The position numbers were made by a program, and so were the translations under genes. Of a DNA stretch of 64,000 bases, positions 1-36,886 are shown one piece after another; position 1 is the first letter of the stretch, and every line of letters starts with the position of its first letter. Source of the stretch: Naegleria gruberi (Eukaryota); NCBI GenBank assembly GCA_000004985.1, contig GG738899.1. One strand, written 5' to 3'. The notes under the pieces are model-generated. The model was not told the origin of the DNA. It ran no database searches and saw only the letters and a program-made list of their open reading frames with translations.

Positions 1-369
1 CGAACCCAAACCCAAACCCAAACCCAAACCCAAACCCAAACCCAAACCCAAACCCAAACCCAAACCCAAACCCAAACCCAAACCCAAACCCAAACCCAAA
101 CCCAAACCCAAACCCAAACCCAAACCCAAACCCAAACCCAAACCCAAACCCAAACCCAACCCAAACCCAAACCCAAACCCAAACCCAAACCCAAACCCAA
201 ACCCAAACCCAAACCCAAACCCAAACCCAAACCCAAACCCAAACCCAAACCCAAACCCAAACCCAAACCCAAACCCAAACCCAAACCCAAACCCAAACCC
301 AAACCCAAACCCAAACCCAAACCCAAACCCAAACCCAAACCCAAACCCAAACCCAAACCCAAACCCAAA
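1..369. repeat. Terminal telomeric repeat array (CCCAAA)n, about 61 units; C-strand on top means a left chromosome end, G-strand TTTGGG
   Basis: Direct reading: near-perfect hexamer cccaaa from position 1, with one variant cccaac near position 159. The array ends at 369 in a T8 run. Confidence 0.9.
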
Positions 370-590
370 CTTTTTTTTCATCGAGTACCTATTATCTCTA
401 GAACCACTTTGAGTTTTTATTAGCATATAACAGTTTGTCGATGAAATTGTACGCTGATTAACATATATAAGATCCAAGTTTTAAATATTGGCCATTAATA
501 AAATGGTAATGGGTTTTCGCCATACCCAAACCCAAACCCAAACCCAAAACCAAGGAGTTTAGATTGGAATGACTCCAAACCCAAACCCAA
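370..590. repeat. Subtelomeric junction element (~150 bp) ending in an inverted GGGTTTT followed by a short interstitial telomere tract (cccaaa x3-4, interrupted); copy 1
   Basis: ttatctctagaaccactttgag ... aatattggccattaataaaatggtaatgggttttcgccata, then cccaaacccaaacccaaaaccaagg ... ccaaacccaaacccaaacc. A homologous copy lies at 9586-9770. Confidence 0.6.
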
Positions 591-826
591 ACCTTTGATT
601 AATTCTAACCGTTCATCCATACGAATATTTGAATAGAAGTTACACGTTCACAGTGAACAGAATTTTATCATTTTTACAATCCAAACGGTTTTTATTGGCG
701 GGAAAAGGGAGCATTCTATTGTTTGAGGGAGCATTGCAAAAAAGCGGCGTGAACTTTTCAACAGATATCTAGATAGAAAGTATATAGTTTTTTTAAAACT
801 TTACTGAAAAACCTTTCCAAAAGCCC

Positions 827-3517
827 NNNNNNNNNNNNNNNNNNNNNNNNNNNNNNNNNNNNNNNNNNNNNNNNNNNNNNNNNNNNNNNNNNNNNNNNNN
901 NNNNNNNNNNNNNNNNNNNNNNNNNNNNNNNNNNNNNNNNNNNNNNNNNNNNNNNNNNNNNNNNNNNNNNNNNNNNNNNNNNNNNNNNNNNNNNNNNNNN
1001 NNNNNNNNNNNNNNNNNNNNNNNNNNNNNNNNNNNNNNNNNNNNNNNNNNNNNNNNNNNNNNNNNNNNNNNNNNNNNNNNNNNNNNNNNNNNNNNNNNNN
1101 NNNNNNNNNNNNNNNNNNNNNNNNNNNNNNNNNNNNNNNNNNNNNNNNNNNNNNNNNNNNNNNNNNNNNNNNNNNNNNNNNNNNNNNNNNNNNNNNNNNN
1201 NNNNNNNNNNNNNNNNNNNNNNNNNNNNNNNNNNNNNNNNNNNNNNNNNNNNNNNNNNNNNNNNNNNNNNNNNNNNNNNNNNNNNNNNNNNNNNNNNNNN
1301 NNNNNNNNNNNNNNNNNNNNNNNNNNNNNNNNNNNNNNNNNNNNNNNNNNNNNNNNNNNNNNNNNNNNNNNNNNNNNNNNNNNNNNNNNNNNNNNNNNNN
1401 NNNNNNNNNNNNNNNNNNNNNNNNNNNNNNNNNNNNNNNNNNNNNNNNNNNNNNNNNNNNNNNNNNNNNNNNNNNNNNNNNNNNNNNNNNNNNNNNNNNN
1501 NNNNNNNNNNNNNNNNNNNNNNNNNNNNNNNNNNNNNNNNNNNNNNNNNNNNNNNNNNNNNNNNNNNNNNNNNNNNNNNNNNNNNNNNNNNNNNNNNNNN
1601 NNNNNNNNNNNNNNNNNNNNNNNNNNNNNNNNNNNNNNNNNNNNNNNNNNNNNNNNNNNNNNNNNNNNNNNNNNNNNNNNNNNNNNNNNNNNNNNNNNNN
1701 NNNNNNNNNNNNNNNNNNNNNNNNNNNNNNNNNNNNNNNNNNNNNNNNNNNNNNNNNNNNNNNNNNNNNNNNNNNNNNNNNNNNNNNNNNNNNNNNNNNN
1801 NNNNNNNNNNNNNNNNNNNNNNNNNNNNNNNNNNNNNNNNNNNNNNNNNNNNNNNNNNNNNNNNNNNNNNNNNNNNNNNNNNNNNNNNNNNNNNNNNNNN
1901 NNNNNNNNNNNNNNNNNNNNNNNNNNNNNNNNNNNNNNNNNNNNNNNNNNNNNNNNNNNNNNNNNNNNNNNNNNNNNNNNNNNNNNNNNNNNNNNNNNNN
2001 NNNNNNNNNNNNNNNNNNNNNNNNNNNNNNNNNNNNNNNNNNNNNNNNNNNNNNNNNNNNNNNNNNNNNNNNNNNNNNNNNNNNNNNNNNNNNNNNNNNN
2101 NNNNNNNNNNNNNNNNNNNNNNNNNNNNNNNNNNNNNNNNNNNNNNNNNNNNNNNNNNNNNNNNNNNNNNNNNNNNNNNNNNNNNNNNNNNNNNNNNNNN
2201 NNNNNNNNNNNNNNNNNNNNNNNNNNNNNNNNNNNNNNNNNNNNNNNNNNNNNNNNNNNNNNNNNNNNNNNNNNNNNNNNNNNNNNNNNNNNNNNNNNNN
2301 NNNNNNNNNNNNNNNNNNNNNNNNNNNNNNNNNNNNNNNNNNNNNNNNNNNNNNNNNNNNNNNNNNNNNNNNNNNNNNNNNNNNNNNNNNNNNNNNNNNN
2401 NNNNNNNNNNNNNNNNNNNNNNNNNNNNNNNNNNNNNNNNNNNNNNNNNNNNNNNNNNNNNNNNNNNNNNNNNNNNNNNNNNNNNNNNNNNNNNNNNNNN
2501 NNNNNNNNNNNNNNNNNNNNNNNNNNNNNNNNNNNNNNNNNNNNNNNNNNNNNNNNNNNNNNNNNNNNNNNNNNNNNNNNNNNNNNNNNNNNNNNNNNNN
2601 NNNNNNNNNNNNNNNNNNNNNNNNNNNNNNNNNNNNNNNNNNNNNNNNNNNNNNNNNNNNNNNNNNNNNNNNNNNNNNNNNNNNNNNNNNNNNNNNNNNN
2701 NNNNNNNNNNNNNNNNNNNNNNNNNNNNNNNNNNNNNNNNNNNNNNNNNNNNNNNNNNNNNNNNNNNNNNNNNNNNNNNNNNNNNNNNNNNNNNNNNNNN
2801 NNNNNNNNNNNNNNNNNNNNNNNNNNNNNNNNNNNNNNNNNNNNNNNNNNNNNNNNNNNNNNNNNNNNNNNNNNNNNNNNNNNNNNNNNNNNNNNNNNNN
2901 NNNNNNNNNNNNNNNNNNNNNNNNNNNNNNNNNNNNNNNNNNNNNNNNNNNNNNNNNNNNNNNNNNNNNNNNNNNNNNNNNNNNNNNNNNNNNNNNNNNN
3001 NNNNNNNNNNNNNNNNNNNNNNNNNNNNNNNNNNNNNNNNNNNNNNNNNNNNNNNNNNNNNNNNNNNNNNNNNNNNNNNNNNNNNNNNNNNNNNNNNNNN
3101 NNNNNNNNNNNNNNNNNNNNNNNNNNNNNNNNNNNNNNNNNNNNNNNNNNNNNNNNNNNNNNNNNNNNNNNNNNNNNNNNNNNNNNNNNNNNNNNNNNNN
3201 NNNNNNNNNNNNNNNNNNNNNNNNNNNNNNNNNNNNNNNNNNNNNNNNNNNNNNNNNNNNNNNNNNNNNNNNNNNNNNNNNNNNNNNNNNNNNNNNNNNN
3301 NNNNNNNNNNNNNNNNNNNNNNNNNNNNNNNNNNNNNNNNNNNNNNNNNNNNNNNNNNNNNNNNNNNNNNNNNNNNNNNNNNNNNNNNNNNNNNNNNNNN
3401 NNNNNNNNNNNNNNNNNNNNNNNNNNNNNNNNNNNNNNNNNNNNNNNNNNNNNNNNNNNNNNNNNNNNNNNNNNNNNNNNNNNNNNNNNNNNNNNNNNNN
3501 NNNNNNNNNNNNNNNNN
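827..3517. other. Assembly gap (run of N, ~2.7 kb)
   Basis: Contiguous n characters. ORF 793..3933 is an artefact of translating the N run and the telomere repeats. Confidence 0.99.
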
Positions 3518-3897
3518 AAACCCAAACCCATTCCCAAACCCAAACCCAAACCCAAACCCAAACGCGAACCCAAACCCAAACCCAAACCCAAACCCAAACC
3601 CAAACCCAAACCCAAACCCAAACCCAAACCCAAACCCAAACCCAAACCCAAACCCAAACCCAAACCCAAACCCAAACCCAAACCCAAACCCAAACCCAAA
3701 CCCAAACCCAAACCCAAACCCAAACCCAAACCCAAACCCAAACCCAAACCCAAACCCAAACCCAAACCCAAACCCAAACCCAAACCCAAACCCAAACCCA
3801 AACCCAAACCCAAACCCAAACCCAAACCCAAACCCAAACCCAAACCCAAACCCAAACCCAAACCCAAACCCAAACCCAAACCCAAACCCAAACCCAG
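3518..3897. repeat. Second (CCCAAA)n telomeric block (~63 units with a few variant units), followed at 3898-3950 by degenerate telomere-like units (aaacccaacc, aaaccctagccc)
   Basis: Direct reading. Variant units: cccattccc at ~3530 and aaacgcgaaccc at ~3563. Same orientation as the terminal array. Confidence 0.85.
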
Positions 3898-3959
3898 AAC
3901 TAAAAATAGAATTCTTCTAAACCCAACCTTCAAACCCTAGCCCAAAATTATAAACTTAT

Positions 3960-4790
3960 TCAAATATCATTAAATTTTATATCATTCGATTGTAAATGAT
4001 GAGTAGAACAACGTGTTATATTTAGTTTTTCAATTTATAAAATATTAACTTTGTAAATAATATCAGATTAAAAATTTGTAAAAAGAAACCATAGGAAGAA
4101 TGATAATTTCAAAATCCTTTAATGAGATTATATAGTCTATATCATCATTAACAACATTTATAATCACTTCCATATCAAATTTCAAAAGTTCAAGTCTGTA
4201 GATATAAAAGTATCAAGTGAAAAGGGAAGTTGTGAGGTAAAAGAGGTCGACTATAACTTTTGAGTTTCTCATCAAAACATATTGAATCCTGACATGAAAA
4301 TGTTCCATTTGATGAGTAAACATCGAATATCAAATTTATTTTAACTTTCATATTTAAAGATTTCTTCCCTCAACCATCATGGTCAACTAGGGATGAAAAG
4401 GATGAAATCTTGAAAAAGGACCACCTATTGAAACTTTACCAAAATGATGTACATGATCTATAATGATATAGAATTCAATTTCATATCATAAAAATCAGAA
4501 ATGGTATCATGGGAAGGTAAATGTTGATATTTTATGGTTGACTTTAGAGAAAGACAAGTCAGACCAAGTCAATCAAATACATCACTTCAATCAACAAAAT
4601 ATACATGAAAATGCTCCATTCGATGAGTAGAGATAGATTATAAAGTTTATTTTAACTTTCATATTCATGATTTCAACTCTGACATACCATTCAGTCAACT
4701 GAGGGACATGAATGAAAATCTGGAAAATGACCACTCTATGAAACCTTACCATCATGATCTATATCACAAATAATGTTGTAGAGTTCAATT
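3960..4790. repeat. Subtelomeric repeat R750 copy 1, with internal ~230-bp subrepeats carrying the motif atgagta[ag]...atcgaatatcaaatttattttaactttcata
   Basis: ~90% identical to 11925-12700. Shared strings include aactttgtaaataat[ag]tcagattaaaaatt, ataaaagtatcaagtgaaaagggaag and gtgaggtaaaagaggtc[ga]actataacttttgagtttctcatcaaaacatattgaatcct. The internal subrepeat 4290-4440 resembles 4600-4760. Confidence 0.8.
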
Positions 4791-4924
4791 TGAGATGTTT
4801 ATAAGGTAATTTGTCTTTATAGGAAGGTAAATGTCTATATTCAAGGTCGGCCAAGTTCCTACCAGTACAGAAACCAAAAATTAAATAAGGCAAGAATTTA
4901 ATAAAGCCGAAGACCATCAAAAAA

Positions 4925-7070
4925 ATGAAAAGAAATCCCAAAGGGTTCTTGTCATCTGATGATGATGACGAACTTGTGGTGCGTTTGTCTGAAGAGCCTG
5001 TAGAAAATGACGATGACATTGAGTTGCCAAGAGATGATGAAAGTGATTCCGATGATGAACTAGACAGTGCCTTCACATCTATAATGTATGGAAATGATGA
5101 TGATGGTGAAAATATCATTGTGGAAAATCATNNNNNNNNNNNNNNNNNNNNNNNNNNNNNNNNNNNNNNNNNNNNNNNNNNNNNNNNNNNNNNNNNNNNN
5201 NNNNNNNNNNNNNNNNNNNNNNNNNNNNNNNNNNNNNNNNNNNNNNNNNNNNNNNNNNNNNNNNNNNNNNNNNNNNNNNNNNNNNNNNNNNNNNNNNNNN
5301 NNNNNNNNNNNNNNNNNNNNNNNNNNNNNNNNNNNNNNNNNNNNNNNNNNNNNNNNNNNNNNNNNNNNNNNNNNNNNNNNNNNNNNNNNNNNNNNNNNNN
5401 NNNNNNNNNNNNNNNNNNNNNNNNNNNNNNNNNNNNNNNNNNNNNNNNNNNNNNNNNNNNNNNNNNNNNNNNNNNNNNNNNNNNNNNNNNNNNNNNNNNN
5501 NNNNNNNNNNNNNNNNNNNNNNNNNNNNNNNNNNNNNNNNNNNNNNNNNNNNNNNNNNNNNNNNNNNNNNNNNNNNNNNNNNNNNNNNNNNNNNNNNNNN
5601 NNNNNNNNNNNNNNNNNNNNNNNNNNNNNNNNNNNNNNNNNNNNNNNNNNNNNNNNNNNNNNNNNNNNNNNNNNNNNNNNNNNNNNNNNNNNNNNNNNNN
5701 NNNNNNNNNNNNNNNNNNNNNNNNNNNNNNNNNNNNNNNNNNNNNNNNNNNNNNNNNNNNNNNNNNNNNNNNNNNNNNNNNNNNNNNNNNNNNNNNNNNN
5801 NNNNNNNNNNNNNNNNNNNNNNNNNNNNNNTCTGAGGATCCCATTGAGAGGAGATTCGATTTCATTCATTAGATTGAGAGACATTTCTTTCGAAATTGTA
5901 ACAGATGATGAATTAGATGATGGTACATTCACCATTAATTGTAATATGATCATCAGAAAGGAAAAACATATTGGGGAAGATAATGATCGTGAATTCAGAT
6001 TGTATGGTAAGAAGGATCAGAAATACTGTCCTGTATTCAATTTAATTAATTACCTATTTAGAAGAACTCCTAATCCATTTGAAGAATATCAGAAAGGAAT
6101 GAGTTTCAAATCTTTCTTATGCAAGCGAAACTTCAACCTGAATTCAAGTTTGAGTGAACAACCCCTTTTTACTCAAAAAGAATCAAGTAATCCAGCCACC
6201 TCCAAAGATCTTTCAAATTGGTTGAAGAATTCTTCCAGAGACAAATTGGGAATTACTTACTCCATGAGATCATTGAGATCCGGTTGTATAATCTTACTAT
6301 ATGCTACATTATGCATTATCAAAGGAACTCCAACTCTTGAAACAGGAGCATCCATTCCAATTAGAGCAATAGTTGGTCATATGAGAGACGAATCTATCAA
6401 ATTTTATATCAGAAAAGCTGTCACTCTCTGCCATAATTTTACTGACCTACAAGATGGTATCTCCGCAAAGAAATTGGATATTAATGATGTTGAACTTAAT
6501 TATTGTTTGACTATTCAGAAGTGTTGCTCTCATTCTGAATACTTAAAATGTCCTGAGTTTATTTCAAATTATATTAAGAACAATAAGGTTGATAGAAGAA
6601 CTTGGATTCCAAGAGGTAGGCCTCATTCTAATCCAAATTTAAAGAACCAACGCCACAGAGCTGCCACTGATATGAAAAAGTACATAATTGCAAATTATCC
6701 AATGCTAAATCTTGGAGATCCAGCTTTAAAAAGGAAAGATGTAGCATGGGAATCATTCTTTGCAGCATGTGGAACATTCATTACTGAAAATGAATTAGAT
6801 ATTGACCCGTATGCCGATTTATCCAAAGCTCAAAAACGAGATAGAAGAAACAAAATGTCTGCTTTGAAAAAGTGCCTTAATATTCTTTATGATGAAAGAG
6901 ATGATGATTTAAAGACCAAAAGTCAATCTAGATTGGATGAAATCATCGTTGGAGCTGAAGCTAATTGGGAGATTCCACAGAGTGCATATAATCCAAAATC
7001 CAAGAAGAGAAAGGTTGTTGCGGAATCTGAATCTGAATCTGAATCTGAATCTGAATCTGAATCTGAATGA
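4925..7070 (+). mobile_element. Crypton-like tyrosine recombinase gene, interrupted by an N-gap at 5132-5830. Acidic N-terminus, a tyrosine-recombinase catalytic domain, a KKRK nuclear-localisation signal, and an (ES)n tail encoded by (gaatct)8
   Basis: After the gap the ORF reads ...SMRSLRSGCIILLYATLCIIKGTPTLETGASIPIRAIVGHMRDESIKFYIRKA. This aligns motif-by-motif to the Cre/integrase box II region (HxxR...GxSIPxI...G[HW]...Y catalytic tyrosine). Upstream is a candidate box I / beta-hairpin Lys (REFRLYGKKDQKYCPVFNL). No reverse transcriptase or RNase H lies nearby, which argues against a DIRS element. Confidence 0.55.
5132..5830. other. Assembly gap (N run)
   Basis: n characters. All ORFs spanning it (5060..5953, 5128..5865 and the central part of 5088..7070) are artefactual in the X region. 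Confidence 0.99.
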
Positions 7071-7074
7071 CTAA

Positions 7075-7683
7075 NNNNNNNNNNNNNNNNNNNNNNNNNN
7101 NNNNNNNNNNNNNNNNNNNNNNNNNNNNNNNNNNNNNNNNNNNNNNNNNNNNNNNNNNNNNNNNNNNNNNNNNNNNNNNNNNNNNNNNNNNNNNNNNNNN
7201 NNNNNNNNNNNNNNNNNNNNNNNNNNNNNNNNNNNNNNNNNNNNNNNNNNNNNNNNNNNNNNNNNNNNNNNNNNNNNNNNNNNNNNNNNNNNNNNNNNNN
7301 NNNNNNNNNNNNNNNNNNNNNNNNNNNNNNNNNNNNNNNNNNNNNNNNNNNNNNNNNNNNNNNNNNNNNNNNNNNNNNNNNNNNNNNNNNNNNNNNNNNN
7401 NNNNNNNNNNNNNNNNNNNNNNNNNNNNNNNNNNNNNNNNNNNNNNNNNNNNNNNNNNNNNNNNNNNNNNNNNNNNNNNNNNNNNNNNNNNNNNNNNNNN
7501 NNNNNNNNNNNNNNNNNNNNNNNNNNNNNNNNNNNNNNNNNNNNNNNNNNNNNNNNNNNNNNNNNNNNNNNNNNNNNNNNNNNNNNNNNNNNNNNNNNNN
7601 NNNNNNNNNNNNNNNNNNNNNNNNNNNNNNNNNNNNNNNNNNNNNNNNNNNNNNNNNNNNNNNNNNNNNNNNNNNNNNNNNNN
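7075..7683. other. Assembly gap (N run)
   Basis: n characters. ORFs 6923..7690, 7067..7774 and 7071..7787 are artefacts. Confidence 0.99.
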
Positions 7684-8820
7684 ATACCAATTTGCATATT
7701 CTGTATCAATTTTACAGTGGTTGGCCAGTTTCCAAGGTCACTTATTAAGAAATGGTCAATTAACTTGCAAGTGACCCTTCCGGACACTTACAGTCACCAA
7801 AAACTATACCAATCAACTCTACTCATCGTCAACTACATTTTGATATATAATTTATTGACTGGTATGATACTTTCATATATGGTCATCTCAGCCCTCTAAC
7901 CTCCCATAGTAACTAAGGTATATACAGATCTCAATTTCCAGTGAGTGAATTTTAATTCTTTCAACTGTACCATGTTCCTGACATCAATTAGTGTATTCTA
8001 TATCAATTACATATGAATTGGTGATGTTTCCATTGACTTGAGTATACCTTGATTTGGTACCTTACCAAATATGGAAATGATGATATCTCTACTTCTACTG
8101 AATAGATTTGAATTGTTTCAACTCCAATACATTGCAAATATCATATAATATATTATGTATCATTTTCACTGTGGTCGGCAAGGTTTCAAGGGTAGGTCAT
8201 TAAGGATGGCCAATTGACTAACAAGTGACACTTCTAGACATTAACAGTCACAAATATCAATATCAATCACCTCCACTCACTGTCAGCAACATTTTGATAT
8301 ATAATTTATTGACTGGTATGATACTTTCATATATGGTAATTTCAGCCCTCAATCCATCCCATAGTACCTTAGGTATATACAGATCTCAACAAGTACTCAT
8401 CGAAATTAAATTCTGTCAACGCCAATCGATTTCTAACATCTAATTATGTATCGTGTATCAATTTCATATGAATTGGTGATGTTTCCATTGACTTTATTAT
8501 ACCTTGATTTGGTACCTTACCAAATATGGAAATGATGATATCTCCATTTCTACTGAGTAGATTTGAAATATTACAACTTCAATATGTTTAAAATATCGTC
8601 AGCAACATTTTGATATATAATTTATTGAGTGAAGTGATACTTTCATATATGGTAATTTCAGCCCTCAATCCATCCCATAGTACCTTAGGTTTATACATAT
8701 CTCAACAACTACTGAATAGATTTGAATTCTTTCAACACCAATCGACTTCTAACCTCAAATTATGTATCGTGTATCAATTTCATATGAATTGGTGATGTTT
8801 CCATTGACTTCAGTATTCCA
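7684..8820. repeat. Tandem satellite with a ~450-bp period (about 2.5 units)
   Basis: Three recurrences of the block: a first unit spanning about 7690-8140 that closes with ...aaatatggaaatgatgatatctc[tc]a[ct]ttctactga[ag]tagatttgaa; a core acattttgatatataatttattgactggtatgatactttcatatatggt[ac]at[ct]tcagccctc found at 7836, 8289 and 8607; and gtatcaatt[at]catatgaattggtgatgtttccattgactt found at ~8005, ~8455 and ~8770. Confidence 0.8.
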
Positions 8821-9585
8821 TTACATTCCCACAGCAGGATTTGAAGGATTCACCCTAATTGATTATATCCCTATGTACATGATTAATTTCAATTATTTCA
8901 ATTAGATATTATAAATCATGATGGTTAGACATGCAGGAATGAGTGGAATCAAGTCAAGTAAGACATTCATCCTTCAATTACCAATATTGTCAATTTCACA
9001 CAAGTTGACTTCCAAAAGTCTGCATATGGATCCAAACATGGTTTTTTCAATTATATATGATTATCATTGATATTAACTACAATTTCTAGGAGTTTAATAA
9101 ATTAGTATAGTGTTTCCATAGTATGGCTCAATATCTTGGTCAATTAAGGTAGAATGAGTACATTATACTAAGGATATAATATATTATACTCCCAACACTT
9201 CTACAAGGTAGATATCATCATTATACATCATATATATGAGATTGGTGATGATTCTAATAACATTCATATAATAGTACAATAAATGTTGAAAAGTTAATTT
9301 TAAGACATGTTGTAACTTATTAAATACACCGATTCAACATGATTAATTCATAATATCATATATTCATACATATATCTACAATATATTAAAATTTACATTT
9401 CAACCCAACTTTGAAATTTTAGACCTACTAGGGTAAAAACCTTAATATTTCAGGCAGTGCCTTATTATTTTTGAACGCAATGATATTTTTCAAATTTATT
9501 TGCGAATATAGTCAACTCATATTTATATCTACTACATATATTTAATCCAGACCGGCGATCTCCATATTCATAGAGTAATACCGGG

Positions 9586-9770
9586 AAAACCTAACTTTTA
9601 TTTTATCAGAGTTGATTATCTCTATAACTACTTTGAGATATGACTGCTTCGTTACAATATAAGCTTTTTATTTATATTTGAATGACATATATGAAATTCA
9701 GATACTCAATATTGGCCGTTCGTTAGTCGTCGATGGGTTTTCGTCTAACCCAAACCCAAACCCAAACCCA
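9586..9770. repeat. Junction element copy 2 plus a short interstitial telomere tract (taacccaaacccaaacccaaacccaatc)
   Basis: ttatctctataactactttgag ... aatattggccgttcgttagtcgtcgatgggttttcgtctaacccaaacccaaaccc matches 370-545, including the inverted gggtttt immediately before the cccaaa units. Confidence 0.6.
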
Positions 9771-11850
9771 ATCTTGAATATAGAAAACCACATCCTCAAT
9801 CAACAAAATACATATCAATCGATTGGAAATCATTAGTACATCTCGAAAATATCATTTATTTTATGTTTTGAAATCTCTCCTTTACCTCTTTTGGTCAATT
9901 AAGACAATTAAGGATGAGACTATAGGAAAAGTTACCAATCTCAAAATAAATGATAATATCGTGTTCCGCATCTCAAATAAAGTGGACTTTCTTCAAATTA
10001 TATATTTTCATTTCAATAAATGCATCCGTTAGATAGTACATGGTGATATTTCAATGGAATGGATGGAAATCTGAAGGATATAGAAACAACTCCATTTTCA
10101 CTGAAATTGATTTCATGACATGTAGACACTCTAATTAGTATATGGTATCAATTTTATGAATATTGGTTCAGTAGATGTCGACTTGTCAACTCTATCAATT
10201 TACTATAGACATTTGACATGATGTCATAGATTACACTCCAACTCACTCACTTTACATACAGTCAATCTAGAATTGATACCACATAGAGTATACATAAGTT
10301 AAATACACTGTATATAGTTTGGAAACAATTCGTATTACTTACAATTAGTCAGTCAGTTAATGTTCAATGTCAAAAGTGATTATATCCAAGTGTACACTCT
10401 ATCTCAATGAATGTACATCCTATCATCATGTAACTTTACCAGATACGTTTAATCATACTATTATACATATGGTATCAATTTAAGTCTATTAGAGTTGAAT
10501 TCAGTATGATAATAATAACAATCTGCCAAATTGTCAGATTTCAACATATAGAATATACTCCATCTCATTCATTTTACAAAATATCATACAAGTATCAAAT
10601 ATGAATACACTCTTCTTGGTGAGGAGAACAATCTGTGAGAGTTTCATATTGATGGCTCAATATCTTCAACTCAAGAACATCTAAGGTAATAAATAGGGAA
10701 GAATCTTAATTCCAAAATTAAATTTTACTATCATATCAAAATCATTGAATAATGAATTATTTATACAAGAATAATATATTCAATTGTTATACTCATGTCA
10801 GTAATCAGTGAAGGTGATACTTCTTCAACAGTAGTTTTCACATCTCAATATGTAGACAGTCAATTCCACTGAAACTTGAAATATTACCTATCTAGATGAT
10901 ATCATGATGACTCTCCATTGTAACATGCATGTGAAATTGAATGTTGACAGTTTACATCTTGTTATATTTATAGAGATGGTATCCAACAGAGTCAGTTCAT
11001 AATATTAAATATTGAAACTCATTCTGTATGACATGTTTGATGTATAGAACGGTTTTTTATTGAATATAATCAGTTTGAAATAATTTGATGAAATTGACAC
11101 TGTCTAGTCACCATTACATAACAAATAGACCATAGTTTACATTCCATCTCAGTCATTTCAACGAGTTATTGATTAATTCCACCACCATTATGTTTCTCAT
11201 ACATTGTAGTTCAGTTTGTATTTCAAGAGTGATTTCTGTGTAGATTATTATAATCGTAATACCTTGCAATACCAATAAAACTCAATAGAAGAGTTAATTC
11301 TTCTGATTTTCAAATAGATTATTCAATATAGAACACATCTAGATAGTTTCCATATCATAAAAGTCAAGATACTATATATGGTCTTTGATTAAATTTAAAA
11401 ATAGACTGCCGTTAATTACTGGAATATTAATTCAAAGCTTGTTGATCAAGCTATTGATTGAAATCAAACCGATTATTGAATATTGATCATTGAATTGGTG
11501 AATAATCACTCTTGATAATGTTACTTATTCATATTGCATGCAAATCAACCTGATTCAATCTACAAAGGTTGGTAGTTGCACCACTTCGTGGCGAAACTAC
11601 CATTCCACGATGAATCAACATAAGAATCACTTCCATTCAACTCAATTTGACCGTTATAATCAATAAATCAATGAAATGTTCCTTTATTAGCAATACCTAT
11701 TCAATCTAACGAGTAGATTCACGTCCCAAACATTTGACTTCTCAACGTCCATAATTCAAAAGTTAGTACTGACCTGACCTTTAAATATCTATCAACACAA
11801 GAAATGAAACCATCAAATTTACATCATTAATAGATCATAAGAATTATAAT
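9770..11850. repeat. Subtelomeric segmental repeat R2k, copy A
   Basis: Long collinear identity with 13055-15500. For example, atcttgaatatagaaaaccacatcctcaatcaacaaaatacatatcaatcgattggaaatcattagtacatctcgaaaatatcatttattttatgtt corresponds to 13055ff. Further anchors are at ~11220 (ttcaagagtgatttctgtgtagattattataatcg), ~11560 (gttggtagttgcaccacttcgtggcgaaactacc) and ~11700. Confidence 0.8.
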
Positions 11851-11899
11851 CAATGATATGAATCTTCACTAAGTAATCTCTTAAATAACCCAAATAAAT

Positions 11900-12700
11900 C
11901 AACTCTGAATCCTAACCAAACCCAACCATTAACTTTGTAAATAATGTCAGATTAAAAATTATAAAATGAAACCATAGGAAGAATGATAATTTCAAAATCC
12001 TTTAATGAGATTATATAGTATATATCTTCACTAACAACATTCATAATCACTCTCATATGAAATTTCTAAACTTCATGTCGGTAGGTATAAAAGTATCAAG
12101 TGAAAAGGGAAGATGTGAGGTAAAAGAGGTCAACTATAACTTTTGAGTTTCTCATCAAAACATATTGAATCCTAATATGAAAATGTTCCATTTGATTATT
12201 AAACATCGAATATCAAATTTATTTTAACTTTCATATTTAAAGATTTCTTCCCTCAACCACACATGGTCAACTATGATGAAAAGGTGGAAATCTTGATAAA
12301 GGACCACCTATTGAAACTTTACCAAAATGATTTATATGATCTATAGTGATATAGAATTCAATTTCATATCATAAGAATTAGAAATGGTACCATGGGAATG
12401 TAAATGTTGATTTTACAAAGTTGACTGAAAGGAAAGACAAGTCAGATCAAGTCTATCAAATATATCACTTCAATCAACAAATTACACATGTACATGCTCC
12501 ATTAGATGTGTAGAGATAGAATATCAAGTTTATTTTAACTTTCATAATCAAGATTTCATCCCTTTCATACCATCTAGTCAACTATGGACATGGATGAAAA
12601 TCTGGAAAATGACCTCTCTATGAAACACTTCCATCATGTTTAACAACTCAAATAATGTAATAGAATTCAATTTTAGAGTTTTAAAATGTAATTTGACAAT
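11900..12700. repeat. R750 copy 2, preceded by a degenerate telomere-like remnant (cctaaccaaacccaacca). A relic chromosome-end structure now lying internally
   Basis: Matches 3898-4790, including the degenerate tel-like leader and the aactttgtaaataatgtcagattaaaaatt...gtgaggtaaaagaggtcaactataacttttgag stretch. Confidence 0.75.
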
Positions 12701-13054
12701 ATAGTAAGGTAAAGGTTGATATTTTAAGGTTGACTTTAAGGATTGAAAGGTGAAAATCAAGATATCAAAAACATCACTCCAGTCAATAAAACACATATCA
12801 AAATGTTGCAAACGATGAGTAGTCATCGAAAATATCATTCATTCTAATTGGAAATATCTCTAATATCTAAATGGTGGTAAACTCTCCCTCAAATGAACAA
12901 ATGAATCAGCCAAGTTACCAATCTCAAATTAAATCATATAATCATGTTCCATATCTCGTATAATGTATATAATTCAGTTTTTAGACATTTTGGTAAATAT
13001 TCCATAATTCAGTAAGGTAAAGAGTGATTTATCAAGGTTGACTTGGGAGGATCA

Positions 13055-15500
13055 GGAGGAAATCTTGAATATAGAGAACCAAATCCTCAATCAACAAAAT
13101 ACATATCAATCGATTGGAAATCAATAGTACATCTCGAAAATATCATTTATTTTATGTTTTGAATTATCTCCTTGACCTAATTTGGTCAATTAAGACAATT
13201 AAGGATGATACTATAGGGAAAGTTACCAATCTCAAAATAAATGATACTATCATGTTTAACATCTCAAATAAAGTGGACTTTATTCAAATTATATATTTTC
13301 ATTTCAAGAAATACATCCGGTAGATAGTACATGGTGATATTTCAAGTGAATGGATGGAAATCTGAAAGATACAGAAACAACTCCATTTTCACTGAAATTG
13401 ATATCATGGTATGTAGACACTCTAATTAGCATATTGTATCAATTTTATGAATATTGGTTCAGTAAATGTCGTGTTGTCAACTCTATCACTTTATTATGGA
13501 CTTTTGACATGATATCATAGATTATACTCCAAATCACTCAATTTACATGCAATAAATCTAAAATTGATATCACACAATCTAGACATCATTTAAGTATATA
13601 TAAACAAGTTTAGAAACAATTCATGATACTTTCATTCAACCAATCGGTTCATGTTCAATGTCAACAGTATTTATATCCTAGTGAACTCTCTATCTCAATG
13701 AAAGCAGGTTCAATCATTATATAACTTTACCATATATATTAAATCACTTTATTAATTATATGGTATCATTTACAGTCTGTTAGAATTATATTCAGTATGA
13801 TAATAATATCATTCTTCCAAAAAGTCAGCTTTCATCACAAAGATCACACTCCATCCCATTCATTTTGCAAAATATCATATTAGTGTAAAATATGAATACA
13901 CTCCTCTTTATGTGGATAACAATCTGGAACAGTTTCATATTCATAGATCAATATCTTAAAGTTGCAACCAATCCATATAATAATTGAACACAATATTTTA
14001 ACGTAGATAAAATCGATTTACTTTGAAAAGTAATTTTAAAAATTATACGCCAAAATAGAGCAGCTTTCTTACTGGTCTTTCTTGTAGTGTTGAATTTATT
14101 TGTCCGAAAACCCAAGAATCTAAACCTAAAAACCTAAGCTAATTGAATATTCAATCTCATACCGGAAAAGATTCTTATTTGCGGAAAAAGATTCGAATCT
14201 TAGCGAATCTTCAATCAATTTCGAATGGAAACTGAATCTAATATCGAAATCTTTACCACTTTCCAAATAACAACGCAAACAACAAATACACCAAATCTCG
14301 ATATCTAGATAGAAAGTATATACTTTTTTTAAAACTTTACTGAAAAACCTTTCCAAAAGCCCAAGATTCACTTAAAGACTCTATATTAGATCATAAAGAC
14401 CATGGTGCCACCGAAGTAACAAATCAAAACAACTCTAATCCAAAACCTTATTTCCAAAATTAAATTTTACCATCATATCTAAATCATTGAATAATGAATT
14501 ATTTATACAGGAATCATATGTTTAGTTGTTATATTCATGTCAGTAATCAGTGAAGGTGACACTTCTCAAACCTAAGTATAGTAACATGCATGTGAAAACA
14601 TATATTGACACTTTTCATCTTGTTATATTTATAGAGATGGTATCTTACAGAGTCATCTCACAATATTAAATATTGAAGCTAGTTCTATATGATATATATG
14701 ATGTATAGAACTGTATTTGACGATGTCAATCCAGTATGAAATACTTTAGTGGAACTGACACTGTCTAGTCACAATTACATGACAAAGTAAACAATAGTAT
14801 ACATTCCATCTCAGTCATTTCAACGATTTATTGATTAATTCCACCACCATTATGTTTCTCATACATTGTAGCACAGTTTATATTTCAAGAGTGATTTCTG
14901 TGTAGATTATTATAATCGAAATATCATTCAATACCAATAAAACTCAATAGAAGAGTTAATTCTTCTCATTTTCAAATAGATTATTCAATATAGAACACAT
15001 CTAGATAGTTTCCAGATCACAAAAGTCAAGATGCTATATATGGTCTTTGATTAAATTTAAAAATAGACTGCCGTTGATTACTGGAATATTAATCCATAGC
15101 TTGATGATAAAGCTATTGATTGAAATCAAACCGATTATTGAATATTGATCATTGAATTGGTGAATAATCACTCTTGATAATGTTACTTATTCATATTGCA
15201 TGCAAATCAACATGATTCAATCTACAAAGGTTGGTAGTTGCACCACTTCGTGGCGAAACTACCCATCCACAATCAACATAAGAATCACTTCCATTCAACT
15301 CAATTTGACCGTTATAATCAATAAATCAATGAAATTTTCCTTTAATAGCAATACCAATACAATCCAATAAGTAGATTCACGTCCCAAACATTTGACTTCT
15401 CAAAGTCCATATTTCAAAAGTTGATACTGACCTGACCTTTAAATATCTATCAATACAAGAAATGAAACCATCAAATTTACATCATTAATAGATGATAAGA
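13055..15500. repeat. Subtelomeric segmental repeat R2k, copy B. It contains a ~480-bp insertion (about 13940-14420) absent from copy A; the insertion shares ...atctagatagaaagtatata[gc]tttttttaaaactttactgaaaaacctttccaaaagccc with 765-826
   Basis: Direct comparison with 9770-11850 and with 760-826. Confidence 0.75.
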
Positions 15501-16407
15501 ATATATTCAGTAACAAAAAAAGAAGGAGATGTTGAAACCCCAAAAAGAGTGCAAATAAATCAACCTCACCAAAGAAGAGAAAGACTAGTTCAGATTCAAA
15601 TCCATCCAAGAGAAAGAAGTCTAATCATCAAGAATCTGATGGATAAATTGAGGAAGATGGCAATGGAGAGCAGCATTATGAGGAAGAAGATTCACAAAAT
15701 TAATTCTAACAGTTAAAATTGTAACATAATAAAGGTTAAATCATATATTCGAATGAATTGAATATACCCAAGTCTACCTTAATTGAACTGGAAAAAAAAT
15801 TTCAAGTCGGGCTGCCTCCTAGTTAGCACCTTACTTTTACACCTAACCATTTTGTCCAAAATTAAGGATACAAGTTGAGGCTTAAAGTTGGTGGCTCACT
15901 TTTGATGTCATCTTTTCAAAAGTGAGAGTAATACATGGAGGCTAAAATGTTTGGTGCTGACTTTAACACTCTCACTTTCAAAAACTCCAGAGCATTTTAG
16001 TTTATTCGGGTAGATTATTGTTCATTTATTACTGGTAGCCACGAAGGGGAGATTCACTTCATTAAAAGTTTGATTTCAAAGGAATTTAAATAAAATTGTC
16101 ATCAAGGAGATATTAATGGCGCTTGAATCTCGTAATATTATGTAATATATCGTATTGAATAGTAAGCAATTAAAAAGGAGACTATAAGGCACATTTTGGT
16201 CTGATATACGAGCCGTAGTGATTATATTATTTTTAAGGCCGACATCCGCAATTAGATGTGTGTTTCTAAAGCAGGATGCTAACACTCGGGGGAACATGGG
16301 ATAGTGGAAATACCAGTTACGATTAACTCCAAAATGTGAAATTAACGAATTGTGCAGTAAAATTAAGCAGGATTACACCTCACTCAACAGAAAAACAGGG
16401 ATGAGAG

Positions 16408-17490: not shown

Positions 17491-17675
17491 TGGATTATTA
17501 CTTCCTTCTTAATCTCCCATATCTTCCAAACAACCAAAGAAAGGCTTTAAATCATATAAAATAATGAATCCAAAATATCACATTGTATTGAATAAAAACA
17601 TCATATATAGAATTATATAATATTATGATTTTGTGGTGTACAGAACATCATCTGATTTTGTGGTGTACAGTGATA

Positions 17676-19391
17676 TTATTGTACGCATGAAATATGAATA
17701 ATTGAGGAATAATCAAATAAATCCATAATTTCATCTTCTCCCCAAGATGATACCTCAGAATCATAAGGCAACTCCAATTGTTCAAGAGATGATTCAGCAA
17801 GAAGTGGAATGGATTTTGCATCTGAAAGTACATATCGAAGATATTTCAATTTGTGTTGCTCTTTTAAGGTTGTTAAAGCTTTGTATGACGCACCAAAAAT
17901 TGTGACTTTACATAGAAGGTTTAGTTTGATTAATTCTGCAATACTTTCATCCGAACCACTCAAATCTTCAATTTCAATTTGTAAATTTGGTCGATTCATA
18001 GCTATTGATTTCCAATTAATGTTTTCTGCAGTAATGTAGCATAAACTTAAATAATTGAGATTAGGGAAACATTCAGAGGATGGTTGTGCTAGTAATTTGA
18101 GTATTTCTGAAGAAATTTCCCCTTGTAGAGTCAATCTTTCAATAAAGCTGTTACTCAAATCTCCCATTATTGTTTGGTGTCTGGTGTAAAATGATAGAGA
18201 TTTGATACAAGGTGTGTGTAGTAATGTATCTATTGAACCACCTCTATAACCAGTGATTCCTATATGCTCAATTTGTAACTTGTTTGGATTATCAATAATT
18301 TCAAAATTTTCATGTTCATTTCCTCCTTCAATATCAAGCTTTTTGATCGTACTATTACTTTGAAGGAATACTTTCAACTCTTCTCCAATATGTTCATCAA
18401 TTTGAACCCTAAGACTAGTGAGTTTTGGCAGGAGTGACGATTTTTCGTGTAATGCTTTGAAAAATCCATTCTTTACATTTTCAATATCTAACGTCCTTAG
18501 TGGAATTGGCTTTTTCATCTCTGAGAATAAATCAGCTCCTACAATTTCATTTGTTGAAACCTTAAGCTCTTTAATTTTTTCCAGAGAGAAAAGTTTCCTT
18601 ATGCTAAACTCTGTTATCAAATTATTCGAAACATCTAATTTTTCAATATTAGGTAAAATAGAGATAATTTCCAACAATCCCTTATCATTAATTCCACAAT
18701 AATGTGCCGTAATTGATGTAATTCCAGAGAATGTTCCAAAGAATTCGGTAAAATTTCCATTGTATATCATTGGTGTCCCTTCTTCATTTTCATCAGAGTG
18801 TTCAAATTCTACAGATTTCAAATTTAAACCACATTTCAAAAACCTTTCATAATTATCCTTTGTTGAAACATCCAAAAACTTGAGATTTTCAAGACCAGGA
18901 CAAAAATCCCAGTACGGGAAATCAACAATAGTGCATTGTCCAATAAAATAAGTTGGCCAAATTAAAGACTTGATTCCGTTCAACCTCATAGTTGAAACCA
19001 ATTGAGAGTGTTGATATGGACAATTCACAAAATCAAAATCTAAATGTTTAAACAAGAGTTGTACCTTTCTAAATGGATCATTTGAAAAGTATCCAAATAT
19101 TAAATTTTGTAATTTAGAAAATCCTATTTTCTCTCTAATTTCCCAATTACGAAAGCTAGCATTAAAATCAACATCTTCATACTTTTCCATATCCGATCTG
19201 GAGATGTAGTAGTACCTATTGAGAGGAAATAATACAAAATCGAAAATATTTAAAATCAAGTGGTGTGGAATTGGATGAAAAATTGACATGTTTTGATCAT
19301 GATCATCTTTACGCTTTTTTGCAGAGGGAAGTGCTTCCGATGATGCTGATGAGGTTGAATTGATATTGTCATCAAGCAAACGTTTTGACAT
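17676..19391 (-). CDS. F-box / leucine-rich-repeat protein with a basic N-terminal nuclear-localisation signal
   Basis: F-box-like HHLILNIFDFVLFPLNRY near the N-terminus, then repeated LxxLxLxxN/C LRR units (LENLKFLDVS, IEKLDVSNNLITEF, LTSLRVQ, IKKLDIEG, LNYLSLCY). KKRK nuclear-localisation signal. Intronless 571-aa ORF. Confidence 0.55.
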   Translation of the reverse strand: MSKRLLDDNINSTSSASSEALPSAKKRKDDHDQNMSIFHPIPHHLILNIFDFVLFPLNRYYYISRSDMEKYEDVDFNASFRNWEIREKIGFSKLQNLIFGYFSNDPFRKVQLLFKHLDFDFVNCPYQHSQLVSTMRLNGIKSLIWPTYFIGQCTIVDFPYWDFCPGLENLKFLDVSTKDNYERFLKCGLNLKSVEFEHSDENEEGTPMIYNGNFTEFFGTFSGITSITAHYCGINDKGLLEIISILPNIEKLDVSNNLITEFSIRKLFSLEKIKELKVSTNEIVGADLFSEMKKPIPLRTLDIENVKNGFFKALHEKSSLLPKLTSLRVQIDEHIGEELKVFLQSNSTIKKLDIEGGNEHENFEIIDNPNKLQIEHIGITGYRGGSIDTLLHTPCIKSLSFYTRHQTIMGDLSNSFIERLTLQGEISSEILKLLAQPSSECFPNLNYLSLCYITAENINWKSIAMNRPNLQIEIEDLSGSDESIAELIKLNLLCKVTIFGASYKALTTLKEQHKLKYLRYVLSDAKSIPLLAESSLEQLELPYDSEVSSWGEDEIMDLFDYSSIIHISCVQ

Positions 19392-24714: not shown

Positions 24715-25842
24715 CTATTGTTGAGCAGCAGCAGCGGCTTCTTTGGCAAGTCTAAGTTTTTCTTCTTTTTCTTGTTGTTTTTTGGCCTTACGACGTTCTT
24801 CCTTGTCTTTCATTTCCATAATGAGAGATTTCATTTCTTCGTCAGCAAAGCTTTGAACTTGAGCATCTGATTCTCTGTACATACAAGCAGTGATACCAGC
24901 AATCTTTTGAACACGCAAAGCGTGCAAGCACAAACGAGAGGCAATGTGTGAACTCTTAGCAATTTGTACAGCAATTTCAAATGAACGATGTCTGCAAGCA
25001 GTAGCACCTTCCATAACATCCAAAACAACTCCATATTCCTTAGCTTTTTGAGCAGTAATCAAGTCACCAGTCAAGAGCATGTATGAAGCAACTTGGTGAC
25101 CAACCAAGTATGGCAATAAAAGTGATGAACCCATACCAGGTGACAAACCAATTTTTACAAAGTTGAATGACATTTTAGCAGTAGCTTCCATAACTCTAAT
25201 ATCAGTGGCACAAGCAATACCGAGACCAGCACCAACAGCATGACCAGACATACAGGCAATGGTTGGAACAGGACAAATTCTAAGCAATGGTGACAAGAAG
25301 CTGTCATAGAATTGACTCATTCTGTTGGCATTATTGAATGGAGTATCATCAATTCTTTCTAAAAGGAAATCATAATCACCTCCAGCAGAGAATGCAGGAT
25401 GATTCATTTTACCTTCGGAATCAGGAGCTGGTGGAGCACCTGTCAAAATAATAGCTGCCAATCTGTTATTATTTGTAATTCTTGAACTTTCCATCAATGC
25501 TTTGAATTGAACAGCAGTTTCAGGACAAAGAGAATTCATCTTTTCTGGTCTATTGATTGTAATGACACCAATGGTCTTGTGAGTCATTGGTGTGAATCCA
25601 CTCTTTTCTTCCGAAAGTTTCAAATCCATTTCGTGAATATCTGAAGGATTAAAGTTTGAATTACTAGCCAACATTTTGATGCAATCAGTAACATCCAATT
25701 CATCAAATTGAACATATTGATTTGGATCAGTTTGTCTACTCATCATGGATGAATGAAATCCTCTCTTTGCTCCGAGGAACATGACAGAAGCAACCTTTCT
25801 AGTATTCAAGAGTGTACTCTTTCGGATCAATGAATTCATCAT
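24715..25842 (-). CDS. Enoyl-CoA hydratase/isomerase (crotonase-fold) family protein with a mitochondrial-type presequence
   Basis: IGVITINRPEKMNSL...AAIILTG...FSAGGDYDF...IACMSGHAVGAGLGIACATDIRV...LLTGDLITAQKAKEYGVV matches the ECH signatures. N-terminus MMNSLIRKSTLLNTRKVASVMFLGAKRGFHSS is Arg/Lys-rich and lacks acidic residues. The C-terminus is a K/E-rich coil. Confidence 0.75.
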   Translation of the reverse strand: MMNSLIRKSTLLNTRKVASVMFLGAKRGFHSSMMSRQTDPNQYVQFDELDVTDCIKMLASNSNFNPSDIHEMDLKLSEEKSGFTPMTHKTIGVITINRPEKMNSLCPETAVQFKALMESSRITNNNRLAAIILTGAPPAPDSEGKMNHPAFSAGGDYDFLLERIDDTPFNNANRMSQFYDSFLSPLLRICPVPTIACMSGHAVGAGLGIACATDIRVMEATAKMSFNFVKIGLSPGMGSSLLLPYLVGHQVASYMLLTGDLITAQKAKEYGVVLDVMEGATACRHRSFEIAVQIAKSSHIASRLCLHALRVQKIAGITACMYRESDAQVQSFADEEMKSLIMEMKDKEERRKAKKQQEKEEKLRLAKEAAAAAQQ

Positions 25843-36813: not shown

Positions 36814-36886
36814 AGCCCTAGAGATGTTTCGATCATCTGACCTCAACCTTATGAGGGTTATGCTCTCCCACTGAGCTACGAGGGCT
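36814..36886 (-). tRNA. tRNA-Met (anticodon CAU) gene with an initiator-like T-loop (AUCGAAA: A54, A60), followed by a T5 Pol III terminator
   Basis: Reverse complement: GCCCTCG-TA-GCTC-AGTGGGA-GAGC-A-TAACC-CTCATAA-GGTTG-AGGTC-AGATG-ATCGAAA-CATCT-CTAGGGC-T, then TTTTT. D, anticodon and T stems are fully paired. The acceptor has a G1:C72 pair and one C6:U67 mismatch. Confidence 0.75.

Follow-up and report, generated by a model that had tools for sequence, protein, structure and literature searches.

A junction element between telomere tracts at a layered chromosome end of Naegleria gruberi, and a recombinase-like gene family beside the telomeres of related amoebae

The Y' elements of yeast, which encode a helicase, are separated from X by internal TG1-3 tracts that vary in length. 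This report concerns an element of ~155 bp that occurs twice near the start of a Naegleria gruberi scaffold (contig GG738899.1, assembly GCA_000004985.1), and that passes in both places directly into a short tract of CCCAAA telomere units. All N. gruberi copy counts, tract counts and open reading frame (ORF) searches given below refer to the 64 kb at this scaffold start, hereafter called the window. The element forms the edge of a much larger block that carries a recombinase-like gene. We interpret it, with a probability of about one half, as the inner edge (the innermost, centromere-side margin) of a telomere-bounded terminal block that was joined to healed or broken chromosome ends, copy 1 of the element being what is left of a truncated and re-healed block. 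As with Y', a terminal block common to several ends is set off from chromosome-specific DNA by a short internal telomere tract, homology starts at that tract both between N. gruberi copies 1 and 2 and between two ends of Naegleria fowleri (L007 and L008), and the spread would be by recombination or break-induced replication. Unlike those of yeast, the Naegleria tracts have fixed rather than variable lengths (15 nt in N. fowleri, 23 nt in N. gruberi), the gene is recombinase-like instead of a helicase gene, and Y' has no head-to-head telomere unit at its junction.

The TATE element of Leishmania braziliensis is a VIPER-like element encoding a tyrosine recombinase that is found in tandem clusters at GGG^TTA of the telomeric hexamer (PMC6681497). 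Its resemblance to the Naegleria block lies in a unit encoding a probable tyrosine recombinase that sits amid telomeric hexamers in a member of Discoba and is clustered at chromosome ends, and in the constant position within the hexamer, which is GGG^TTA in TATE, GGG^T(T)(T) for each N. gruberi copy and GGG^ for each of the two N. fowleri ends. On the G-rich strand, all four junctions seen (two in N. gruberi and two in N. fowleri) join after GGG, within 1-2 ambiguous T. TATE, however, encodes a reverse transcriptase (RT) and RNase H, whereas the Naegleria blocks have no RT of their own; in addition, their recombinase has no significant database similarity to described families, their orientation relative to the chromosome end is not fixed, and an inverted telomere unit stands at the junction. 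Endogenous nimaviruses of crustaceans, which are inserted in (TAACC)n, possess telomere-repeat-specific tyrosine recombinases (PMC10871703) and are likewise recombinase-bearing inserts with host telomere repeats on both sides, but they are 300-kb viral genomes with an unrelated recombinase family, whereas the Naegleria block is ~6 kb long and carries no viral genes.

Among retroelements, the Penelope-like elements Athena and Coprina combine short reverse-complement telomere repeats with a hammerhead ribozyme (PMC8557442). Reverse-complement telomere repeats are present at the centromere-facing end of both N. gruberi copies, and telomerase-capped truncations and a nested telomere/element/telomere order are further points in common; searches of the N. 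gruberi window, however, found neither an RT gene nor a hammerhead motif. The poly(A) tail of the telomere-specific SART/TRAS type of retrotransposons, which lack long terminal repeats, is not a feature of both copies (copy 2 lacks the A8-G of copy 1), and no RT or endonuclease ORF was found. Because a defining feature of each was looked for and was absent, the junction element is placed outside the TATE, Y', Athena/Coprina and nimavirus families. Cryptons (Goodwin 2003; Kojima and Jurka 2011, PMC3212892) resemble the block in architecture, the block having one probable tyrosine-recombinase ORF, no RT and no terminal inverted repeats. The homologues of the Naegleria gene are weakly similar to the Crypton-derived NDC10_II domain, all matches being below threshold, so that the block is at most a candidate Crypton. 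The N. gruberi block is flanked by CCCAAA repeats on both sides; to our knowledge, Cryptons are not known as telomere-bounded.

The junction element in a layered chromosome end

Copy 1 (370-524) and copy 2 (9595-9748) are collinear and align end to end. The first-pass annotation of this DNA had put their identity at ~85% over ~150 bp, which proved too high: they are identical in 65% of alignment columns (103/158) when the telomere units are excluded, and BLAST gives 68% over 196 bp when these are included. The similarity of the pair is nevertheless real, since its local alignment score of 37 far exceeds the maximum found in 1000 shuffles (20) and in 818 subtelomeric non-coding windows (17). 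An nhmmer profile of the pair matched only these two loci in the 64 kb, and no third copy was found in the window. Two candidate relationships were considered and rejected, namely an inverted third copy at 14105, where the match is limited to the 9-mer, inside a degenerate tract, and homology of 592-763 with 14128-14299.

Conservation is concentrated in blocks of 8-11 bases (ATTATCTCTA, ACTTTGAG, ACATATAT, AATATTGGCC and ATGGGTTTTCG), and the middle of the element is poorly conserved. Both copies contain AATATTGGCC[A/G]TT and ATGGGTTTTCG[C/T]C[A/T][T/A]A and then run straight into CCCAAA units, as the annotation had described. More precisely, ATGGGTTTTCG precedes a spacer of 7 nt (CGCCATA or CGTCTAA), after which comes a 23-nt tract, CCCAAACCCAAACCCAAACCCAA or (CCCAAA)3CCCAA, that is the same in both copies, whereas the DNA past the tract is unrelated (AACCAAGGAG... 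vs TCTTGAATAT...), which also bears out the earlier description. Such a fixed tract beside variable DNA fits a unit that ends in the tract, whether this is the 3' end of an RNA, the arm of a recombination site or an opened hairpin. The inverted GGGTTTT, which had been singled out as unusual, is half of a head-to-head junction of telomere units (GGGTTTT, 7 nt, CCCAAA..., or GGGTTTTCG plus the tract) that is present in both copies and recurs in related species. Read on the minus strand, copy 1 closes with A8-G just before TTTGGG, where copy 2 shows no more than AAAATAAAAG and then TTAGGT.

A 7-bp hairpin with an 11-nt loop is predicted at the head-to-head junction and is the same in both copies; when both strands were folded, this GGGUUU/AAACCC hairpin was the sole part of the fold common to the two. 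No unusually stable RNA fold was found on either strand of either copy (fold z-scores of -1.3 to +0.7), cmscan of 340-826 and 9300-9900 gave no match at E<=10 to a hammerhead ribozyme, telomerase RNA or other Rfam family, and a scan of the whole window at the Rfam gathering threshold returned nothing relevant to the junction element. The ~155-bp segment is neither a gene nor a structured RNA. Two metagenome scans for junction patterns gave zero matches. The minus strand also holds two conserved blocks, GGCCAAT and, ~20 nt downstream, ATATATG (484-496/9708-9720 and 455-470/9679-9694), which are oriented toward the chromosome end and resemble, in their letters only, a CCAAT/TATA-type promoter for a telomere-directed transcript.

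The telomere repeat of this scaffold is TTTGGG (CCCAAA on the plus strand). The first 369 bases consist of ~61 CCCAAA units, and the window therefore begins at a chromosome or scaffold end. A layered chromosome end takes up its first 14 kb, where six telomere-type tracts all have one orientation: two long arrays, three short tracts and one degenerate tract (Table 1). No further telomere tract was found in the remaining 50 kb of the window. The range 370-590 originally reported for the first copy extends beyond the element to a filler of ~26 bp and the third short tract, and the presence of such a filler between two short tracts suggests another small addition or repair event at this end. The subtelomere is built of segmental duplications (9770-10669 with 13061-13960, 10917-11852 with 14578-15509, and 4044-4841 with 11928-12723) and of tandem repeats of ~311 bp (4044-4841 and 11928-13274) and ~455 bp (7696-8584). 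Two of these duplications lie within a segment of ~3.3 kb (9770-11852 with 13061-15509), the second duplicate of which has a 484-bp insertion relative to the first that holds both the degenerate tract and 14300-14362; no ORFs were found in 7.8-16.4 kb.

One of these duplications dates the attachment of copy 2. Homology between the paralogues at 9.77 and 13.06 kb begins abruptly at AATCTTGAATATA, directly after the short tract (boundary 9770/13059), and in the 13-kb paralogue the 311-bp periodicity runs uninterrupted across 13061. Since the paralogue is uninterrupted and the homology boundary is sharp, position 9773 lies in a 311-bp unit that was broken and then given telomere repeats, which indicates a later addition of the element and of all DNA distal to it. 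The region thus records successive capping of chromosome ends. Of the two origins that the first-pass annotation had offered for its successively capped terminal element, the healed break agrees with the one-way tracts, the break at 9773 relative to 13061 and the capped copy 1; the other, a telomere-targeting retroelement 3' end, found no support (no RT ORF, no Rfam match and an ordinary fold).

Copy 1 lies on a contig of 826 bp that a gap of 2691 N (827-3517) separates from the rest of the scaffold, and the second long array starts immediately after this gap. Array 3518-3898 is therefore either a truly nested telomere or a scaffolding artefact brought about by telomere repeats. The order long telomere, element, short telomere proposed in the first-pass annotation is correct insofar as the 369-bp terminal array precedes copy 1; because of the gap, it is read from the 826-bp contig alone. 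We think it quite improbable that the order at copy 1 and the nesting of long arrays arose because a Sanger clone was chimeric or because telomere repeats misled the scaffolding, so that only copy 2 would be real, as an ordinary interstitial telomere tract. Such an origin would agree with the gap that bounds the 826-bp contig, with the start of the next contig within a telomere array and with the repeat at the end of the first contig, which is also present at 14300-14362. On the other hand, copy 2 lies in a contiguous stretch of 56 kb with the same junction and tract, so the unit of element plus tract is real; copy 1 differs from it at 35% of positions and hence is not a mis-assembled copy; and comparable layered ends are present in long-read assemblies of N. 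fowleri and Willaertia magna. The reach of any assembly artefact would thus be limited to copy 1 and to the way in which the two long arrays are nested.

Recombinase-like genes beside telomeres

After setting aside artefact frames (those in telomere repeats or N runs and those antisense to the gene itself), the recombinase-like gene of the block, on the plus strand, is the sole ORF of at least 90 amino acids in 3.9-16.4 kb. An exhaustive HMMER search yielded 11 relatives (best E=7e-67); a word-indexed protein search found no homologues, and only two when the family profile was used. A series of motifs, GR.TGLRGDS, KEK, YSMRSLRSG, GH and (F/Y)Y.R, is kept across the homologues (7-10 in the alignment), and its order corresponds to that in which tyrosine recombinases have their catalytic residues (Arg, Lys, Arg, His and Tyr). 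In Pfam searches the homologues gave weak, below-cut-off matches to NDC10_II (the Crypton-derived fold), Phage_integrase and Phage_int_SAM_4. A profile search against PDB sequences gave no match for the family, and hhalign against Cre gave a probability of 0.5%, which is not significant, although the expected motifs were paired. Predicted structures had a confidence (pLDDT, predicted local distance difference test) of 38 from the single sequence and 55 from 10 sequences. On the motifs and weak domain matches, the gene is probably, though not proven to be, a Crypton-like tyrosine-recombinase gene, and the N. gruberi copy appears to be intact.

All homologues with long enough genomic context adjoin a contig end made of (TTTGGG)n, at a distance of 0.1-6 kb, and they are the last or nearly the last gene before it. 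The gene lies 5.7 kb from the array in Naegleria lovaniensis (L001, contig PYSW02000027.1), 2.0 kb from it in a metagenomic relative, one organism seen in two metagenomes (L002 and L003), and, in W. magna (L005), 1.3 kb from the terminal array, with a degenerate internal tract only 0.5 kb away. In N. fowleri (GCA_008403515.1) it is found at two contig ends (L007 and L008), and again on a Logan contig (L009). The short contigs L004, L006, L010 and L011 end without a telomere array and are uninformative on the distance between gene and telomere. Two of the ends have further features of their own: at 17590-17700 of the N. lovaniensis contig, ~13 copies of a variant 9-mer, TTTATTGGG, bridge the subtelomere and the canonical TTTGGG array, and in the metagenomic relative several tRNA-like segments with GGTTCGAA T-loop motifs lie within 700 bp of the telomere (~4800-5450 of L002, and alike in L003).

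The N. fowleri ends show how such a block can be shared. Their gene is cut before the RSLRSG, GH and Tyr motifs, and the array starts 76 bp past the stop codon. The proximal DNA of the two ends is unrelated (guanylate cyclase at one vs COQ9 and a ubiquitin-conjugating enzyme at the other), both read GGGTTTGGGTTTGGG-AATATCGCCCATTCAGTGATCCCAAAAA... at the junction, and homology between them starts at the first G of a fixed 15-nt tract and continues, at 93% and then 99.7%, up to the terminal array. Because both ends carry the same telomere-truncated, catalytically dead gene, a result that independent transposition would not yield, the N. fowleri block must have passed from end to end by copying. 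A homologous junction is present in N. lovaniensis behind a degenerate tract, where the proximal DNA is unrelated to the N. fowleri flanks.

Part of the L007 block is a later insertion. Positions 7701-9596 of this contig (VFQX01000033.1) hold a 5'-truncated long interspersed nuclear element (LINE) with an RT end, RNase H and a CCHC knuckle, which is later than the block because a 12-bp target-site duplication of its own, AAGTTCAAAAAT, flanks it and the site is empty in L008. The same evidence led us to reject the N. fowleri junction as the 3' untranslated region of the neighbouring RT gene. It also bears on a wider proposal, by which a terminal retroelement like Athena/Coprina or HeT-A would have the element as its 3' end: reverse transcription of a plus-strand RNA ending in (CCCAAA)4 would start from a free 3' end of DNA, the RNA would serve as template for the fixed tract, and the copies would be 5'-truncated and then capped by telomerase. 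The orientation fits this proposal (long telomere, element, then a short C-strand tract on the plus strand), priming at the RNA 3' end predicts an identical 23-nt tract joined to unrelated DNA, N. fowleri shows the same fixed-tract pattern, and Penelope-like elements that lack an endonuclease bear short reverse-complement telomere repeats at their 3' end (PMC8557442). Nevertheless we regard it as improbable, since no RT ORF was found in 3.9-16.4 kb (a stretch with two assembly gaps), tblastn with a Naegleria LINE RT drew a blank in the window, neither the Rfam scans nor the folds around the two copies gave a significant result, the N. fowleri recombinase gene would be antisense to such an RNA, and the sole RT in the N. 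fowleri block belongs to the separate LINE.

Head-to-head junctions of telomere units recur beside the recombinase-like family in four lineages. The junction of N. fowleri reads (GGGTTT)2.5, 20 nt, CCCAAAAA, and in L011 (GCA_037189345.1 JBBCKJ010052700.1, 100-170) GGGGTTTGGG-CTTAATAC (8 nt)-(AAACCC)3 stands directly before a 5'-truncated recombinase homologue; a tRNA-like 3' half precedes the L011 junction. Read on the coding strand, every locus that is readable on the side concerned has the gene preceded by C-type units and followed by G-type units. A G-type unit, a short spacer and C-type units are the signature of a head-to-head fusion, and its recurrence beside the family in N. fowleri, N. 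lovaniensis and L011, together with a polarity that is that of free linear DNA with two telomeres, would agree with a fossil of end-to-end joining. In this scenario a telomere-bearing end eroded to GGGTTTT (from another chromosome, a free linear recombinase-bearing element or an opened hairpin) fused head-to-head to a critically short telomere, (CCCAAA)4, after which breakage of the far side was followed by healing through telomerase and, later, by duplication of the product. Independent fusions, however, would not be expected to agree in tract length and to have similar 7-nt spacers, the far-side flank should have been preserved if a single fusion had been duplicated, and the 311-bp repeats of the block (4044-4841) are direct rather than inverted relative to 11928-12723. 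We consider such an origin unlikely.

Origin of the terminal block

Attachment of a telomere-bounded block to healed or broken ends, the interpretation we prefer, is built on the following observations, on the recombinase-like gene inside the block and on the like layout at other vahlkampfiid chromosome ends. The complete block (3899-9748) has telomere repeats on both sides, with the 380-bp array as its distal cap; it was joined at least twice to unrelated DNA through a fixed junction (GGGTTTT, 7-nt spacer and 23-nt CCCAAA tract); and the recipient at 9773 is a subtelomeric array of 311-bp repeats broken in mid-unit. The proposed sequence of events would begin with the breakage or erosion of a chromosome end, which telomerase would heal to a short tract; a terminal block bringing its own telomere would then attach, and the cycle could be repeated. 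The block of copy 1 would later have broken 155 bp from its inner edge and have been healed by telomerase at ...GATGAAAAAAAAG^TTTGGG (also given as ...AAAAAAAAG^TTTGGG), and blocks would spread between ends through copying. The recombinase may have brought about the first attachment, or it may have come about through end-joining of a DNA end that bears a telomere, through homology, or through reverse transcription of an RNA ending in CCCAAA. Among the recombinase, end-joining and reverse-transcription mechanisms, the last has the least direct support.

Several observations weigh against this interpretation. Homology-driven copying from eroded telomeres does not predict a fixed tract, yet the tract is 23 nt twice and 15 nt twice. 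The window offers just two copies, 65% identical, one of which sits on an 826-bp contig beside a scaffold gap. The assignment of the gene as a recombinase stays below curated thresholds, with no PDB profile match and 0.5% for Cre. The gene faces away from the long array in N. gruberi and toward the telomere in the other species (four taxa). The two ends of the block have no terminal repeats in common, direct or inverted, and contig 1 is unrelated to the block ends. Finally, nhmmer detected no nucleotide homology of the N. gruberi element to the N. fowleri and N. lovaniensis junction, indicating that the cross-species parallel is architectural only.

The orientation of the gene would be explained if the block derived from a small linear DNA with telomeres of its own, whose polarity would be that of the C-type units, gene and G-type units, since such a DNA could face either way. 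In its strongest form, which we put forward tentatively and consider doubtful, vahlkampfiids (Naegleria and Willaertia) would harbour small telomere-bounded units with a Crypton-like tyrosine recombinase that attach to chromosome ends in either orientation via the head-to-head junction. The junction (G-type unit, spacer of 7-20 nt, C-type units) would then be a recombinase site or a scar left by an intermediate that was linear or a hairpin, and the 155-bp element would be the functional end of the unit, in what would be a DNA-level counterpart of TATE or HeT-A in rebuilding chromosome ends.

The window and Naegleria chromosome ends

The coordinates of the features are collected in Table 1. The window has 33% G+C and is gene-dense with long ORFs from 16.4 kb onward; a 375-aa enoyl-CoA hydratase encoded there (24718-25842, minus strand) is 100% identical to an N. 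gruberi protein at NCBI. The sole Rfam match at the gathering threshold in the window is one tRNA gene (36814-36885, minus strand). A 1223-aa ORF (52555-56226, minus strand) has an N-terminal TNP-like RNase H domain of the P-element/THAP9-type transposase kind (E=1.5e-5).

Table 1. Features of the scaffold end, in order along the window
Feature	Position	Strand	Remarks
Terminal telomere array	1-369	+	~61 CCCAAA units; C-rich strand on plus; chromosome end at left
Copy 1 of the junction element	370-524	+	starts with C-T8 directly after the array; ends ...ATGGGTTTTCGCCATA
Inverted telomere-type unit GGGTTTTCG in copy 1	511-519	+	
Short telomere tract after copy 1	525-548	+	23 nt, (CCCAAA)3CCCAA, as after copy 2
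Filler between two short tracts	549-573	+	~26 bp; unique in the window
Third short telomere tract	574-591	+	~3 units
Rest of first contig	592-826	+	764-826 is 98% identical to 14300-14362; followed by the 2691-N gap
Second long telomere array	3518-3898	+	380 bp, ~63 units; same orientation; caps the large block distally
Body of the terminal block	3899-9594	+	311-bp repeats, recombinase-like gene, 455-bp tandem repeats, two assembly gaps
Probable Crypton-like tyrosine-recombinase gene	4925-7070	+	frame open on both sides of the 699-N gap
Assembly gaps in the terminal block	5132-5830 and 7075-7683		first gap 699 N
Copy 2 of the junction element	9595-9748	+	inner edge of the large block; ends ...ATGGGTTTTCGTCTAA
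Short telomere tract after copy 2	9749-9772	+	identical 23 nt as after copy 1
Older subtelomere	9773-11852	+	starts in mid-unit of a 311-bp repeat; paralogous to 13061-15509
Degenerate old telomere-like tract CGAAAACCCAAGAATCTAAACCTAAAAACCTAAG	14104-14140	+	same orientation; ~160 bp before the 63-bp repeat common with contig 1

A survey in 2013 stated that nothing was known about Naegleria telomeres (PMC3622300), and our literature search found no later description of them. The data presented here indicate that Naegleria and Willaertia use a TTTGGG telomere repeat, and that their chromosome ends are layered with fossil telomeres, with one recombinase-like family consistently the last gene before the telomere. 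The main weight lies on this telomere-adjacent family and the fixed head-to-head junction, rather than on the 155-bp sequence, and the same layout in related amoebae looks like a real way of rebuilding chromosome ends. If the block spread by recombination only, it would still be a clean case of chromosome healing followed by the acquisition of a subtelomere, with a bearing on the plasticity of the genome of the pathogen N. fowleri. If it is mobile, it would be a telomere-dwelling element without a reverse transcriptase, and would connect recombinases of the Crypton type with the maintenance of chromosome ends in relatives of the kinetoplastids, the hosts of TATE.

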